Assembly (NCBI GenBank): GCA_043774805.1
Contig: JAYVTB010000151.1
Coordinates: forward strand, 7-64,006
Length of the DNA stretch: 64,000 nucleotides
Direction: 5' to 3'
From: Cyclobacteriaceae bacterium
GTDB lineage: Bacteria; Bacteroidota; Bacteroidia; Cytophagales; Cyclobacteriaceae
How positions within the stretch are numbered: the first letter of the stretch is position 1; every line of letters starts with the position of its first letter. A program made the position numbers and the translations under genes. Below are positions 3,282 to 15,808 of the stretch, piece by piece. The notes below the pieces were generated by a model. It searched no databases. It saw only the letters and a program-made list of their open reading frames with translations, and was not told the origin of the DNA.

Positions 3282-3450
3282 TTAACCTGGATTATGCAAT
3301 AGCCGCGACCTTCAGGTCGGGGGGAATAAACAAAAAAATATTTGGCTTTAGCCAAAATTATCTTTGGGCTAAAGCCCCTTTTGGATTGTTTTCATTTGTT
3401 CCCCGACATAAATGTCGGGGCTATTTTTCTAATGCATAATCCGGGTTTAA
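3282..3450. repeat. Nested-palindrome REPIN/MITE-like element, copy 1
   Basis: Near-identical copy at 14035-14195. Terminal imperfect inverted repeats (ttaacctggattatgca / tgcataatccgggtttaa), two inverted ATAGCC-footed hairpins and two inner GGCTTTAGCC / GGCTAAAGCC palindromes. Confidence 0.85.
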
Positions 3451-8273: not shown

Positions 8274-9302
8274 CTAGGGATTGATTTTTAGTTGTGTTCG
8301 TATTTTTTCCGTGGCAAAGGTAGCTAAACCTTCGGGTGCGGAATAAATTAAAAATGCATCGATCTCGGGATGCTTCTTCAAAATCTCCATTGCCTTTTCA
8401 TGTCCCATCGCCATAAAAGCAGTGCCCCAAACGTCCGCAGTCGTTGCATTATCAGCAAACACAGAGGCACTCAGGATTGCCCGGGAGGCAGGATAGCCTG
8501 TGAATGGATCAATGGTATGAGAATACTTCTTGCCATCTACTTCCCGATAATTAAAATAATTTCCTGAAGTGGTGAAGGACTTGTCGGAAAGCGTGACATA
8601 AGCTTTGAAGAATTGATTTTCATTTGTGGAGTTCGGATCGAGAATGCCCAACTCCCAGGGCTTGCCTGATTGAAGATTCATTCCTACTGCCATACCTTCA
8701 CCGCCCAACTCTACCAACATGTTTTTAATACCTTTTGTCTTTAAATAGTCGGTGATTACATCGGCTCCATAACCCTGACCTATTCCTCCAAAATCGATCT
8801 GAGCTCTCGGGTCAAGTTTCCAGATACTATCATGATTGAACTGAATTTTATTAAAGCCGATAAAACTTCTGATCGAATCAATTTTAGAACTATCTGGCCG
8901 CGAAACTTTCTGATGACCAAATCCCCACAAATTTACCAGGGGCATTACCGATGGATCAAAAGCTCCTTCCGAATCTTTATAAACCTGTTGAGCAACTTTA
9001 AGTGGTGGATACAGATAAGGAAGTTTAAAACGAAATCCGTTTGACTTATTAAATATCGAAACCTCTGAATACGGGTTGTAATTATTGATTGACAGATTCA
9101 CCAAAACGAGCAATGAATCAACATCTTTTTTAAAATTGCGTTGCTCCGGATCGAAATAGGTAATATGGTACGTAGTGGCCATTGTCTCTCCTTCAATCTT
9201 GATTGGCGCTGTTGGTATCTCGGGATTTCTCCATTTCCAAACCACAAACATGGCTATGAGCAGGATCACCGAATAAATTGCGTTCTTCCAACGATTGTCC
9301 AT
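8274..9302 (-). CDS. apbE: FAD:protein FMN transferase
   Basis: GETMATTYHI, FDPSV.PLVNLWGF, DFGGIGQG, TSGNY, SHTIDP.TG. Confidence 0.9.
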   Translation of the reverse strand: MDNRWKNAIYSVILLIAMFVVWKWRNPEIPTAPIKIEGETMATTYHITYFDPEQRNFKKDVDSLLVLVNLSINNYNPYSEVSIFNKSNGFRFKLPYLYPPLKVAQQVYKDSEGAFDPSVMPLVNLWGFGHQKVSRPDSSKIDSIRSFIGFNKIQFNHDSIWKLDPRAQIDFGGIGQGYGADVITDYLKTKGIKNMLVELGGEGMAVGMNLQSGKPWELGILDPNSTNENQFFKAYVTLSDKSFTTSGNYFNYREVDGKKYSHTIDPFTGYPASRAILSASVFADNATTADVWGTAFMAMGHEKAMEILKKHPEIDAFLIYSAPEGLATFATEKIRTQLKINP

Positions 9303-9397
9303 GAGTTTGAATTTTGGCGGTGCAATTTAGAACCATGCCGATCCGATTAAAACACTTTTAGTGGTTTATTTGCTTAACTTTCGATTGAGAAATACCT

Positions 9398-10426
9398 ATG
9401 CGCGAGGATTATTTAAAAGGAGAACCAGAAGGTCTTAATTCTGCAGAAAAAGAAATCGAGAAAGCACTTCGTCCTCTTTCGTTTCATGACTTTAGTGGTC
9501 AGCAGAAAGTAGTAGATAATATTAAAATCTTTGTGCTTGCTGCTAAACAAAGATCCGAGTCGTTGGATCACGTGTTATTGCATGGCCCTCCGGGCTTGGG
9601 GAAAACAACACTATCGTTCATCATTGCCAATGAATTGGGATCCAATATTAAAATTACTTCAGGGCCTGTATTAGATAAACCCAGCGACCTGGCAGGGCTT
9701 CTCACCAACCTTGAAACCAATGATGTTTTATTCATTGATGAGATTCACCGACTCAATCCCATCGTTGAAGAATATTTGTATTCCGCCATGGAAGATTTCA
9801 GAATCGATATCATGCTCGATTCAGGACCCAATGCAAGATCCGTTCAGATTTCATTAAATCCATTCACCTTAATTGGAGCCACCACCCGGGCAGGCTTACT
9901 TACTTCACCTTTACGCGCACGTTTTGGAATTAATGCCCGATTGGAATATTATGATTCGCAATTGCTAACCAAAATTGTGCATCGTTCTGCAAGCATCCTT
10001 GCGACACCTATTGTAGATGACGCTGCGTTTGAAATTGCAAGACGAAGCCGAGGTACTCCGCGTATTGCGAATAATCTATTAAGGCGCACACGTGACTTTG
10101 CACAAATAAAAGGAGACGGCACCATCACCAAAGCTATTGCACAAATGGCACTGAAGGCGTTGGATGTTGATGAAAATGGTTTGGACGATATGGACAATCG
10201 CATCCTGAGTGCCATCATTGAAAAATTCAAAGGAGGACCTGTGGGGTTGACTACGATCGCCACGGCCGTGGGAGAAGAAGCCGAAACCATTGAAGAAGTG
10301 TATGAACCGTTTCTGATCCAGGAGGGATATATTAAACGCACATCGCGGGGAAGAGAAGCCACTGAAAAATCCTACAAACATTTAAAGATTGTTCCTCCAT
10401 CAAGAACACAAGGATTGTTTGATTGA
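9398..10426 (+). CDS. ruvB: Holliday junction branch migration helicase RuvB
   Basis: GPPGLGKTT Walker [32 protein letters not shown]. Confidence 0.98.
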
Positions 10427-10464
10427 GTTTCCAATCATCTTTCCGGAGTTTAAAATGATGGTTG

Positions 10465-11829
10465 CTATTCTATGATAAATTTCTTCCGCGTTGTCTTCAG
10501 TCCATCAGAAGTCATGAGGGTATAAATACCCGTGGGAAGTGACGTTATGGATTGATGGATAATGTCTTCGTTCATTGCATGAATCTGAAATATTTCCCTG
10601 CCGGGAAGATCATAGAAAATTATGGACACACTACCTTCAAAGCCATACGCTTTAATATTCAGTTCCGTTGATGCCGGTATTGGATAAAGCTCAACTCCAT
10701 GAGTTTCCTTCCGAGTTGTAATAGCCATTATGGGATCATTGCCGTACAGGGATGGAATCTCATTTCCAAAAATAATATACGGTGATTGCATAAAACTAAT
10801 GAAGCTATTTTTAGCGGATTGACCACTCATCGAATAGGGTACATAGGGAAACGACCAACTTGCATTAATCCAGGTTAATAGCCAGCTTATTTTCCATGCC
10901 TTTTCATCTGGATCATTTAATAGCGTTGGGAGTATCGTATCATTCCAATACAAACTTGCATTATCACCACTTACCCGGTTACCGGTCTCCGACAAGACGG
11001 CTATCTTATCATGTTGCGCTGCAAAATCAACCAGTGAACCAAGTTGTGTTCTTAACGAAGTTGAATTGATTTCATAATAGTCCAGGCCAACAAAGTCTAT
11101 GTATTCGTCACCGGGATAATAATTGAAATCCAATGGGAAATTGGGAGACCAGCAAAACAAAACACTTTTAGTTCTGTCTTTCACGTAGTTAACTGTTAGT
11201 GCGTATAATGCTCGATAATTAGTAGTTGAAGTAGCTGCGCTTCCCCACCAAAACCAATTTCCATTCATTTCATGAAAAGGCCGAAAGACGATAGGAATGG
11301 CATCATTACCAACCTTAAGATCATTGTTAATGATGTTGATTACTTTGTCTAGTTCCCCAAAAAACCACGCCCGATCACCATTTAAGTCGGCAACAATATT
11401 ATTTACCAGATCAGGAGGCGAACCAGCATATTGATAAGAGGATGTACCCCTGGCACTCAGATGCCAATCAAAGGTGACTACGTAACCAAGTTCATAGGCC
11501 CATTTCACAGCTTCGGTGTGATACGATCTTTCGGCATCACTTTTCTCCAGGTAATAATGAAAGTCAGAGCCCAACACAGCCGGATGCGAGCCGGTTACTG
11601 CTTTGGAATCTGAATAATCCTTTTCACCATGCGCACCACCTGAACTGTATCGGAAACTATTAAAAAACTCCTGACCGAAGAGTATGTTCTTACTATCTTG
11701 AATAATCTTCAGATTTTTATAAAGCGATTTTGTTTTGGTAGTTACATCCGAATCAACTTGAGCATAACCGTTTAAGAATGACATCAAGTATGCTAATGAA
11801 ACAAGTAATAGCTCAAATTTTACTTTCAT
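10465..11829 (-). CDS. Secreted GH26 glycoside hydrolase (beta-mannanase-like) with T9SS C-terminal sorting domain; ATG 11829 preferred over TTG 11850
   Basis: Signal peptide, RPFHEMNG (acid/base Glu), WFWWG, YYPGDEYIDFVGLDYY, LSETG (nucleophile), and a CTD (LYPIPA...YDLPGREI...GIY...KKFIIE). Confidence 0.88.
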   Translation of the reverse strand: MKVKFELLLVSLAYLMSFLNGYAQVDSDVTTKTKSLYKNLKIIQDSKNILFGQEFFNSFRYSSGGAHGEKDYSDSKAVTGSHPAVLGSDFHYYLEKSDAERSYHTEAVKWAYELGYVVTFDWHLSARGTSSYQYAGSPPDLVNNIVADLNGDRAWFFGELDKVINIINNDLKVGNDAIPIVFRPFHEMNGNWFWWGSAATSTTNYRALYALTVNYVKDRTKSVLFCWSPNFPLDFNYYPGDEYIDFVGLDYYEINSTSLRTQLGSLVDFAAQHDKIAVLSETGNRVSGDNASLYWNDTILPTLLNDPDEKAWKISWLLTWINASWSFPYVPYSMSGQSAKNSFISFMQSPYIIFGNEIPSLYGNDPIMAITTRKETHGVELYPIPASTELNIKAYGFEGSVSIIFYDLPGREIFQIHAMNEDIIHQSITSLPTGIYTLMTSDGLKTTRKKFIIE

Positions 11830-11908
11830 GGTTTTAACCTTGAAGCTCAAACTACTTCAATCCGTGATGTTGCAATTAACTGCATGAATACCTCTGAATG
11901 GAGTATGA

Positions 11909-12751
11909 TTAAATTACCTGAACAGTATTGGTCAACGTACCAATTCCTTCGATGGAAATTGAAACTTCATCATTTGCCTGAAGAGTGAATTCATTGGAGG
12001 GTACGATGCCTGTTCCGGTCATAAGGAAACTACCATATTCAAACTTGCATGCCCTGTAAAGCCACGAAGCTAATTCGGGAAGATTTCTCTTCATCCGATT
12101 GAGTTGAATCGAATTGCTAAACACATCCTGGTGATTTCTCTTTATGGAAATTGAGATCAGAGTCTCCTGTGAAATAGGTTGCTCAGGAACAAATAAGCAG
12201 GGTCCTAGCGCACAACTACGTTCATACACTTTCGCCTGAGGCAGGTATAAAGGATTTTCTCCTTCAATACTGCGTGAACTCATATCGTTGCCAACCGTGT
12301 AGGCCTGAATTTCGCCCTTTGAATTGATGTACAAAGTGAGCTCCGGTTCTGGAACATTCCACGATGAATCTTCACGAATGTATACTTCCTCATCGGGTGC
12401 GCTAACGCGATGAGGAAGTGCTTTAAAAAATAATTCGGGGCGTTCAGCATCATATACTTTTGAATAAACATCAGAAGCTCCCGATTCTTTGGATTCTTCC
12501 ATGCGCGCATCACGACTGCGCAAATAGGTTACACCGGCCGCCCAAACTTCCTGATTTCCGATAGGCGCAAGAACCTGACTTAATAGTTGCTTTCCCTCAT
12601 CAAACGGAAGTGGTTGTGAAATTTGCGAGAGTCCAGCCAGGTGTTGATGAAGGTTTGATCGGTTAATCACTACATCCCAATCTTCCGTCAAGAGAAATGC
12701 TTTATTTCCGTTCACCAGCAATGCGCCTTGCTTCGTTTTATATAATTGCAT
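11909..12751 (-). CDS. Fumarylacetoacetate hydrolase-family protein, 2-keto-3-deoxy-pentonate dehydratase (XylX/KdaD-like)
   Basis: [52 protein letters not shown]. Confidence 0.8.
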
Positions 12752-12754
12752 GAT

Positions 12755-13969
12755 TTACTTTTTAATTTTGCTTAAATCTACACCTAAAATATTTTTAGCC
12801 AACTCGTTCATCTTTTCAAAATCGCCCTCAAAATGACAGGTTAGTTGCTTGTAGCTTTTACTTTCTCCTGCCTTCAATTCAAGTGCTGACGAGGAAGATT
12901 CCAATTCATAGAAGGGCCCTAGTTGAGAGCCATCTGCCAATGGGCCGTCATTATATGAGTTTACGGCATCTCCCCGATATGGCTCTTCTTGCAATTCCCA
13001 TTTCGAATTCACATAAGCGGCATCGGGTGCGATTTCAAATCGTGTAACCGTGAGCACATTATTCTGGAAATCGTAACTGGCTGATAATGGTTTGGCAATA
13101 ATGGGAGACAAACCAATTTTACTGCGATACTTTCCATCGCACGTAAAAAACAAAACACTGTCTTGAATCGCGATGCGGTCAGCGGGAATTTCTCCAAAGT
13201 AGGTAGTGGTAATTAAATTTTTTGCATTCGCTGTCGGTTTGAATGGAATGATCACGATGGTTTGATCTGATGGTGTAAACATTCCCAGCAACCAAATGGA
13301 AAGCAAACCGGTTTCTTTTTTCCAATCATTGGCGCTAACATTCTTAATTTGATTCTCAGTTTGATAGCTCACAAACTTAACGCCAACAGGAACTTTTGCA
13401 CTTAACTCCAATTCCAGCTCATTTTTATTGAGCAACGAAATTTTTCTTTCAATGTAAAGATCAAAAACGGTTCCGCTATAATTCGTAATGGAAGCCTGTT
13501 TTGAAAATGTGGCGCTCAATGCGTTGCTTTCCACTACTTCAAATTCTTCAGTGTCAATTATGGCCGGCACCTGCCAGTTTTTAATCTCGAAGGAATCACC
13601 CTGATGAAAATAAAGAGAATACTGCCCGCCTTCCGGTCCTAACCAAAAACGCTCCTCACCTCCTACCGGATTAAATTGTTGTTTTTTTTCGCCAGAAGCA
13701 ATCAGGTTATAATTAAGCCAACCATAACTGGTTCCTTTATCCCCCGAGGCGGTGCTGGTCATAACCCGGCCCTGATAGTCGCCAGATAGCAACACCTTCG
13801 ACTCACCCGTTGCATCGCTCAGCTCGATGATACTTTTGGTATGCTTCTTTAAAAATCCAATGTCATCACCATAACTGCCAACGGCCTTATCGCTACTATT
13901 TTCTGTTCTACATCCTGAAACCATGGTCATCAAGAAAAGGAAAATGAAAATTTGCACTGAAAATTTCAT
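12755..13969 (-). CDS. DUF6786-like lipoprotein; start ATG 13969 (the ORF-track start 14032 is probably too long)
   Basis: Lipoprotein-like N-terminus ending in VSGC. The motifs GGEERFWLGPEGGQ and NSYNDGP...LGPFYELESSS were recalled as DUF6786. Confidence 0.65.
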   Translation of the reverse strand: MKFSVQIFIFLFLMTMVSGCRTENSSDKAVGSYGDDIGFLKKHTKSIIELSDATGESKVLLSGDYQGRVMTSTASGDKGTSYGWLNYNLIASGEKKQQFNPVGGEERFWLGPEGGQYSLYFHQGDSFEIKNWQVPAIIDTEEFEVVESNALSATFSKQASITNYSGTVFDLYIERKISLLNKNELELELSAKVPVGVKFVSYQTENQIKNVSANDWKKETGLLSIWLLGMFTPSDQTIVIIPFKPTANAKNLITTTYFGEIPADRIAIQDSVLFFTCDGKYRSKIGLSPIIAKPLSASYDFQNNVLTVTRFEIAPDAAYVNSKWELQEEPYRGDAVNSYNDGPLADGSQLGPFYELESSSSALELKAGESKSYKQLTCHFEGDFEKMNELAKNILGVDLSKIKK

Positions 13970-14034
13970 ACATAATGATTTGAATACTTTTTTAAGAATG
14001 TCATTTAAACAATTGTGACAACAGTTCAACACGA

Positions 14035-14195
14035 ATTATGCAATAGCCCCGAGACATTCAGGTCAGGGAAAATAAACAAAAAAAATTTGGCTTTAGCCAA
14101 AATTATCTTTGGGCTAAAGCCCTTCTGGATTGCTTTCATTTGTCCCCCGACATAAATGTCGGGGCTATTTTTCTAATACATAATAATCCAGGCTC
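14035..14195. repeat. Nested-palindrome REPIN/MITE-like element, copy 2
   Basis: Shares exact blocks with copy 1: 14086-14122 = 3341-3377 (37 bp) and 14145-14177 = 3401-3433 (33 bp). Confidence 0.85.
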
Positions 14196-14230
14196 AAGCT
14201 ATAAAGTTAACTCGTAAACCCCACTTCAAG

Positions 14231-14268
14231 AAAAAAAATTGCCTCATACCAAATGGCATGAGGCAATT
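14231..14268 (-). terminator. Intrinsic terminator downstream of the SusD relic
   Basis: AATTGCCTCAT / ATGAGGCAATT 11-bp stem, followed on the minus strand by a T-run. Confidence 0.8.
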
Positions 14269-14290
14269 ATCAATGATTAAAAGTGATAGT

Positions 14291-14404
14291 TTAGTTATAT
14301 CCAGGATTCTGGGTAAGGGTGGCTGCACCATCTTTCTTACTATTCAGAATCTCCTGAATAGTAATCGGAAAATATTCATGTTTCCCTTTTACAAACTGCA
14401 ACCT
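14291..14404 (-). pseudogene. RagB/SusD family C-terminal remnant
   Basis: Minus-strand frame reads RLQFVKGKHEYFPITIQEILNSKKDGAATLTQNPGYN*, the typical SusD terminal motif. An in-frame stop lies at 14405-14407 and there is no start codon. Confidence 0.75.
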
Positions 14405-14641
14405 CTAAGTTAACTGCCTTTATTGCCCTCTATAAGAGTTGATTTGATAATTAATGGCAGGAGCTGGTTTTAAAACAAGTCGGCTGGGTTAATCGCACGT
14501 GCTCTTACCAGGGGAGTACATCATAAGCTGCGTTGATGTTAGTGTGCATTTGGATATCAGCGGTATTTCATACATTCGATAATCAGTGTGTGATGCGTCA
14601 GAGCGATTCTTTTAATTAACTTACCTCCTTATTGCATTTCT

Positions 14642-15568
14642 TTGAGTAATACGCAAACCATAAAATCATTAGCGGCTAATCTTGGCTTCAGCTTTTGTGG
14701 AATATCGAAGGCAGCATTTCTGGAAGAAGAAGCACCCCGATTGGAAGAATGGTTGAGACGAGGATATCAAGGCTCAATGAGCTACCTGGAGAATCATTTT
14801 GACAAACGACTTGATCCAACGTTACTAGTACCGGGGGCAAAATCGGTAATCAGCCTGGTCTATAATTATTATCCAAAAAAGGATCTCGCCCATGAAAATC
14901 CGGATAATCTTAAGATCGCGAAGTATGCTTACGGTGAAGATTATCACTTCGTCATCAAGGAAAAACTGAAAACATTCCTTACCAAAATTCAACAAGAAAT
15001 TGGAGACGTGAATGGCCGCGCATTCGTTGATTCTGCCCCTGTGCACGAAAGAGCGTGGGCAACAAAATCGGGGTTAGGATGGATTGGGAAAAATAGCTTG
15101 CTGCTAAATCGCTCGATGGGAAGTTTCTTCTTCCTGGCAGAACTCATTGTGGATATTGAACTAGCGTATGATGGGCCCATCAAAGATTATTGTGGCACAT
15201 GTACTGCCTGTATGGATGCTTGCCCCACAGACGCCATACCGCAGCCCTATGTGGTAGATGGAAGCAAATGCATTTCTTACTTCACCATCGAACTTAAAGA
15301 AGAGCTTCCTGCCGCGGTGAAAGGTAAATTTGAAAATTGGGTTTTCGGTTGTGATATCTGTCAGGATGTTTGCCCGTGGAATAGTTTTTCACAATCGAAC
15401 CATGAAAATCGCTTTCAACCTCATCCTGATCTTGAGAAGATGAGCTCGCAAGATTGGAAAGAAATTACGGAGGAGGTCTTTGAGAAGTTGTTTGAGAAAT
15501 CAGCAGTGAAGCGAACCAAACGGGAAGGACTTAAGAGAAATATTGCGTTTGTTACCGGCAACAAATAA
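14642..15568 (+). CDS. queG: Epoxyqueuosine reductase (TTG start)
   Basis: [50 protein letters not shown]. Confidence 0.95.
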
Positions 15569-15595
15569 AAAATCCTGCTGTATGGCAGGATTTTT
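15567..15595. terminator. Bidirectional intrinsic terminator between queG and a small convergent gene
   Basis: AAAAAATCCTGC-loop-GCAGGATTTTT. Confidence 0.8.
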
Positions 15596-15616
15596 CTGAT
15601 TAGACATGGTAGAGAC

Positions 15617-15808
15617 TTAAGCTGCTACAAAGCATCGGTTCAAGATGGCTTCGTATTCCCCCCGGTAATTGGCGTAGCACCAACGCTGGAGTTCCAGTAC
15701 TTCATCGGCTATCAATAATTTGATGGCCTTTCTTAACTCTTTTTCGAAGAGCCGTGCGTCAAAACTCACCCTTGTGAGTATTTGCTTTACATAACTGAGC
15801 ATTTTCAT
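15617..15808 (-). CDS. Small hypothetical protein (63 aa), resembles a conserved Bacteroidota small protein
   Basis: ML.YVK.IL.RVSFD..LFEKELRKAI pattern recalled from Bacteroidota genomes. It fills an intergenic gap and ends at a bidirectional terminator. Confidence 0.7.
   Translation of the reverse strand: MKMLSYVKQILTRVSFDARLFEKELRKAIKLLIADEVLELQRWCYANYRGEYEAILNRCFVAA

Follow-up and report, generated by a model that had tools for sequence, protein, structure and literature searches.

The window, the whole stretch of 64,000 nt analysed here, carries between ruvB and queG a minus-strand cluster of three genes that encode a GH26 glycoside hydrolase, a protein of the FAA-hydrolase family and a DUF6786 lipoprotein, and on the queG side of this cluster lie a dispersed repeat, a terminator-like hairpin and the degraded end of a susD gene that are the subject of this report (Table 1). 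SusD/RagB proteins are glycan-binding lipoproteins of the outer membrane (PF07980 plus PF14322) that act as the partners of SusC TonB-dependent transporters in the PULs of the Bacteroidota. Genomes of the same genus used for comparison are denoted by G and a number.

Table 1. Features of the ruvB-queG slot in the window, in order of position.
Feature	Positions	Strand	Remarks
ruvB	9398-10426	+	Other conserved flank of the slot; Pfam RuvB_N/C
GH26 glycoside hydrolase with T9SS C-terminal sorting domain	10465-11850	-	PF02156 7.5e-36, PF18962
FAA-hydrolase-family gene	11909-12751	-	Second surviving gene; PF01557; 85% aa identity to G172 orthologue
DUF6786 lipoprotein gene	12755-13969	-	First surviving gene; PF20583 1.5e-159; probable true start ATG 13969
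Dispersed palindromic repeat (MITE/REP-like), ~150 bp	14035-14184		Separates the DUF6786 gene from the terminator of the relic
Relic piece B	14434-14228	-	Profile positions 465-664; E 1.5e-26 genome-wide (nhmmer)
Intrinsic-terminator-like hairpin of the putatively lost susD	14229-14268	-	Stem 14268-14237, T-tract to 14231
Original susD stop, TAA	14291-14293	-	Aligned with the G170 stop
In-frame tail of the susD relic	14294-14398	-	35 codons, QFVKGKHEYFPITIQEILNSKKDGAATLTQNPGYN
Frameshifted part of piece B, ..LIEGNKGS*LRG	14399-14434	-	1-nt deletion; TAA for a conserved Tyr codon
Relic piece A, VRARAINPADLF*NQLLP..	14432-14511	-	More decayed; profile positions 238-324 (nhmmer)
Spacer from piece A to the queG start, 130 nt	14512-14641		No assignable homology
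queG (epoxyqueuosine reductase)	14642-15568	+	PF08331 6e-25, Fer4_16; divergent from the putatively lost susC

An earlier note, made from the letters of this DNA, had read a peptide on the minus strand between 14404 and 14291, missing from its list of open reading frames, and had taken it for the C-terminal remnant of a SusD protein. The exact reading was reproduced: Arg and Leu are followed by 35 residues running from Gln to Asn and then by TAA. The tail is contained in an ORF of 36 codons with a TTG start (14401-14291), a length under ordinary ORF cut-offs. The 35-mer was searched in six frames against 177 genomes of the same genus, with E values calculated per genome, and it matches the extreme C-terminus of open frames of 576-591 aa with identities of 61-85% (E 6e-15 to 1e-7). 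The best matches are found in G017 (85%, E 5.8e-15), G170 (83%, E 1.8e-14) and G060 (79%), with others in G117 (76%), G172 (73%) and G002 (73%). As evidenced by Pfam, the matched full-length proteins are genuine members of the family, with E values for PF07980 between 1e-37 and 1e-47, alignments that run through profile position 297 of 297, and PF14322 in addition; the assignment to SusD made from the letters was thus borne out, as was the similarity to SusD C-termini on which the earlier note had staked it. At whole-genome scope, tblastn with the tail peptide yields an E value of 8e-11. The same type of search against the window's own genome retrieved no close paralogue, which rules out that the stub arose by recent duplication of another SusD.

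A scan with the PF07980 profile, which the earlier note had also proposed, remained below threshold. The 37-aa peptide gave no match, a 48-aa read-through reached 12.4 bits (E 0.12) against a cut-off of 23.1 bits, aligned to profile positions 276-297 of 297, and a PF07980 scan over the own genome did not include the relic site among its matches. This is expected for a fragment that covers about 7% of the profile, and the family assignment consequently rests on orthology to full-length SusD proteins. Judged as a SusD protein in its own right, the relic has no gathering-score match to PF07980, no susC directly upstream and no complete ORF; judged by descent, it is homologous to bona fide full-length members of the family.

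The tail corresponds approximately to residues 542-576 of the 576-aa SusD of G170. Note that the stop codon lies one codon earlier in most other orthologues than in the relic and in G170. The proline of the FPIP motif, present in 9 of 9 orthologues compared, is a threonine in the relic. Differences to G170 at codon positions 1, 2 and 3 number 3, 4 and 12, so that 12 of 19 fall on the third position, and the corresponding counts for G017 are 6, 3 and 16.

For the DNA upstream of the tail we built a DNA profile from 14 aligned orthologues, comprising the last ~600 nt of susD and ~90 nt downstream, and searched it with nhmmer against the whole genome of 5.7 Mb (195 contigs) and against a local region of 501 nt. 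The stronger of two matches, piece B, holds the frameshifted LIEGNKGS*LRG segment, the open tail of 35 codons, the stop codon and the terminator. The earlier note had pointed to an upstream stop and a shifted frame and had suggested that the latter might be further decayed coding sequence. Both features are real, as LIEGNKGS*LRG can be aligned codon for codon with the sequence L-V-E-G-T-K-R-S-Y-L-K-G of the orthologues, and the single-nucleotide deletion lies directly before CAG. The relic moreover proved longer than had been proposed; it reaches ~14511, and ~140 nt are missing inside it. Its upstream part, piece A, is homologous to the SusD segment 'IR(A/T)RAANPAGFV...NPAANY..TY', approximately residues 455-481 of G170 SusD; the E value is 0.18 genome-wide, 1.3e-5 in the 501-nt local search and 1.8e-6 in another search. 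Piece A adjoins piece B on the same strand and in collinear order and carries further small deletions and stops, and its identity to the orthologues has a maximum of 63% and a median of 52%. Between the two pieces about 140 profile positions (~46 codons) are gone. In the numbering of G170 the surviving SusD residues are thus approximately 455-481 and 528-576 of 576, and of ~1,740 nt of susD about 223 nt are left (~13%), interrupted by stops and frameshifts.

Behind the stop codon the earlier note had described a terminator with an 11-bp stem at a distance of about 20 bp. The hairpin and its T-tract are present and begin 22 nt after the stop; the stem, however, comprises 14 pairs (one of them G-U) and closes on a loop of 4 nt. 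With a calculated free energy of -22.6 kcal/mol the structure has a z-score of -6.2, and 0 of 200 shuffled sequences fold equally well. The stem AATTGCCTCATG.../...CATGAGGCAATT is common to the terminators found 3' of susD in G060, G170 and G066. As a G+C-rich hairpin that lies behind a stop codon and runs directly into a U-tract, the element is predicted to be a Rho-independent terminator.

The spacer of 130 nt from piece A to queG could not be assigned. A Smith-Waterman comparison with the complete queG-susC-susD loci of G170 and G172 scored no better than shuffled sequences, and a MAFFT alignment with the spacers of the relatives was unconvincing and allowed no assignment to susC, to susD or to the queG-susC spacer. 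We infer that this segment is a remnant of the queG-susC intergenic region and that the upstream breakpoint of the deletion lies within it; as it matches nothing, the breakpoint is bracketed only.

The slot itself is readily recognized in related genomes. A blastn comparison of window positions 9300-15700 with the G170 locus returned three collinear blocks in the right order and orientation: ruvB (77%), queG (77%, from window position 14660) and, between them, positions 14231-14400 against the 3' end of susD and its terminator (75.7% DNA identity, E 1e-27). In G170 and G066 the space between ruvB and queG is occupied by susC and susD, with susC next to queG and both genes reading towards ruvB, while G139 has an additional FAA-like gene between susD and ruvB. 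In G106, the genes from queG towards ruvB encode SusC (1090 aa), SusD (625 aa), a DUF6786 protein and an FAA hydrolase, which is the exact arrangement of the window, but with susCD intact and GH26 absent. The G172 locus (contig CAYGGY010000010.1, deposited as 'uncultured Ohtaekwangia sp.') reads queG, susC, susD, DUF6786 and FAA, followed by a TIM-barrel gene. G106, G170, G139, G066 and G172 thus all have an intact susC-susD pair on the queG side of the place that the relic takes in the window, in agreement with the large deletion next to queG that had been claimed from the letters. The window shares the flanking genes and the DUF6786-FAA pair with the intact G106 and G172 loci, whereas the ~150-bp repeat after the terminator and the GH26/T9SS gene at the distal end are its own. 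A third situation is found in three other species (G184, G169 and G144), where queG stands directly beside DUF6786-FAA without susCD; no SusD relic was found in their short queG-DUF6786 spacers. A rule by which DUF6786 always lies 3' of susCD was ruled out by its differing contexts in G003, G029, G035 and G022. In G060 (contig C11, 9590-16769) the susD frame is broken (378 and 183 aa), as is that of susC (490, 200 and 325 aa), and queG is also short; these broken frames are either a second pseudogenization or assembly errors in this MAG, which is 88% complete and 7% contaminated.

Although the flanks of the slot are the same as in these relatives, no susC was found between relic and queG in the window. 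Measured from the start codon of susC, the first of the retained susD codons lies 4,625 nt away in G170 and 4,666 nt away in G172, and judged by these intact loci at least 4.6 kb would have been lost, namely susC and about 455 codons of susD. A SusCD orthologue elsewhere in the genome was not found. The best matches to the SusD and SusC proteins of G170 and G172 in the own genome are paralogues with 27-34% identity, from which we conclude that susC-susD was lost rather than moved. In a blastn comparison with the own genome, neither a repeat nor an IS element that might account for the deletion turned up at the junction; the only repeated sequence was the ~150-bp element downstream of the terminator. 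Note that more than one event may underlie the loss.

In its similarity to the orthologues (maximum 76%, median 62%), piece B falls within the range seen among the orthologues themselves (maxima 62-78%, medians 55-66%), which indicates that most of its divergence accrued under purifying selection; the similarity of piece A is about 8 points lower. The substitutions in the tail relative to G170 are concentrated at third codon positions. From these sequence comparisons the inactivation appears to be recent when set against the divergence of the species in the genus, and it would at the same time date back far enough for about five indels, several stop codons and the exchange of Pro for Thr in FPIP to have accumulated. 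Neither an exact look-up of the FAA-hydrolase protein nor a metagenome scan with DUF6786 found a closer strain, and the nearest relative among the genomes compared has ~83% DNA identity in queG.

The relic is not most similar to the genome that its flanks resemble most. Its DNA identity is 76% to G170 and 73% to G017, against 58% to G106 and 57% to G172, whereas the flanking proteins of the window are 93% identical to those of G106 and 84% to those of G170. As SusD and SusC of G170 and G172 share only 64% and 63% amino acid identity, respectively, two diverged types of susCD must occupy the slot in the genus, and a relic of the G170/G017 type between flanks nearer to G106 implies that in the history of the slot the susCD types either diverged earlier or were exchanged. 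In a flank tree built from ruvB, an acetyl-CoA-synthetase-like protein and queG, the susCD-bearing G139 and G106 lie between the genome of the window (G000) and the susCD-less G184 and G169, a placement by which susCD was lost from the slot at least twice, independently. DUF6786-FAA was retained in G184, G169 and G144 in spite of the absence of susCD.

The genes that survive in the window correspond closely to those downstream of intact susD. The DUF6786 protein has 75% amino acid identity to the product of the gene directly 3' of susD in G172. In the window its ORF, started with GTG, spans 425 aa (12755-14032). This reading is probably over-extended across 13969-14032, since the homology of the relatives begins at the internal ATG 13969, and the alignment to G172 sets in only at residue 22 of the longer reading; the ATG opens a lipoprotein-like signal MKFSVQ..VSGC (MKFSVQIFIFLFLMTMVSGC). 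The slot lacks GH26 in G106, G184 and G169, where ruvB directly adjoins the FAA-hydrolase gene, and GH26 is a lineage-specific addition. At least 15 copies of the ~150-bp repeat with 80-95% identity were found by blastn in the own genome, one of them at about 3291-3440 of the window. The repeat has internal hairpins, and the corresponding susD-DUF6786 spacer in G172, with 148 nt, is too short to hold it. The DUF6786-FAA-GH26 genes are presumably now expressed from a promoter of their own between the terminator and the DUF6786 start, as genomes of the G184 type run DUF6786 from the short spacer on the queG side. An exact TAnnTTTG (-7 motif) was not seen upstream of DUF6786 in a check by eye.

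The reading we prefer, with a probability of roughly 93%, is that 14511-14229 on the minus strand is a non-functional SusD pseudogene stub with its own terminator, left behind by a deletion in place of susC and most of susD. An ancestor would have carried a PUL operon of susC, susD, DUF6786 and FAA hydrolase between ruvB and queG, divergent from queG. One or more deletions would then have removed all of susC (~3.25 kb) and ~455 codons from the 5' end of susD, and the surviving 3' stub would have eroded further by the internal loss of ~140 nt, small indels, in-frame stops and the replacement of the FPIP proline. The comparisons make plain the homology, the synteny, how far the relic extends and the lack of an orthologue in the rest of the genome, and to these we add that the loss probably took place in situ and that the stub presumably serves no function at present.

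Very unlikely, in our judgement, is that the stub was imported already truncated, in a DUF6786-FAA(-GH26) segment from a susCD-bearing donor whose recombination end fell inside susD, so that no susC-susD was ever deleted beside queG in this lineage. The nearest relatives by flanks do include genomes with queG beside DUF6786 and without susCD (G184, G169, G144), and the mismatch of a G170/G017-type tail with G106-like flanks would follow naturally from an import, as would the lineage-specific GH26, by which the slot has taken up DNA before. Yet susC-susD occupies this exact slot and orientation in at least five genomes of the genus, susCD-bearing genomes bracket G000 in the tree, the relic matches the DNA of G170 as closely (75.7%) as ruvB and queG on either side do (77%), and the internal loss of ~140 nt together with the small indels shows a stepwise erosion in place. 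Even less credence is due to selection for the 36-codon ORF or the hairpin or both, be it as a small protein or as an insulator or terminator against transcription from the old susC promoter. This reading is suggested by the contrast between 35 open codons with an intact 14-pair terminator and a much more decayed upstream part, but in the functional orthologues, too, no part is better conserved than the C-terminal block, which accounts for the gradient in the relic. Furthermore an otherwise constant proline has been replaced, the start of the ORF is just a TTG directly after the frameshift, and the susCD-less G184, G169 and G144 keep no such element in their spacers.

That the resemblance to a SusD end is due to chance, or that the contig is chimeric at this point, is hardly conceivable. 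It is true that the fragment is short and by itself scores below the Pfam threshold, but the similarity at the DNA (1.5e-26) and peptide (8e-11) levels is found in the right order and orientation between syntenic flanks, and a chimeric join predicts an abrupt break in intact sequence, where we see a second, collinear and decayed piece with indels and stops. Beyond the pseudogene stub left by deletion in place, the loss could be part of a repeated and selected re-tooling from SusCD-based capture to foraging with secreted enzymes such as the T9SS GH26, in which the terminator stub serves as an insulator. This proposal draws on the loss of susCD at least twice in the slot, on the constant retention of DUF6786-FAA and on the coincident gain of GH26 here, and we consider it a long shot.

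Compared to a SusD/RagB gene, the orthology of the relic covers the last ~48 codons and ~27 further upstream, and slot, orientation and terminator are shared, but the relic is devoid of a start, a lipoprotein signal, the TPR-like body and a SusC partner. Gene remnants persist beside intact neighbours in bacteria, and PUL content varies among related Bacteroidota. The locus follows the course of bacterial pseudogene decay, with a large loss first and then small indels, stop codons and a deletion within the remnant, beside neighbours that stayed intact, and no mechanistic difference to that process was found. A literature search on SusD pseudogenes returned nothing specifically relevant. It is well supported that what remains here of susD is a genuine pseudogene remnant of a decapitated PUL, an ordinary and well-documented type of feature; it reveals no new kind of element and opens no new question.

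For annotation, the finding means that a pseudogene feature belongs in the 600-bp 'intergenic' region. A PUL is usually defined by a susC/susD pair beside genes for carbohydrate-active enzymes, and with no intact susC or susD the DUF6786-FAA-GH26 cluster is by this definition a former PUL. With respect to physiology it should be described as such, a cluster of DUF6786, FAA hydrolase and GH26 without SusC/SusD import machinery. The locus provides a small, clean example of PUL erosion and marks the ruvB-queG slot as a variable PUL site in this genus of the Cytophagales.
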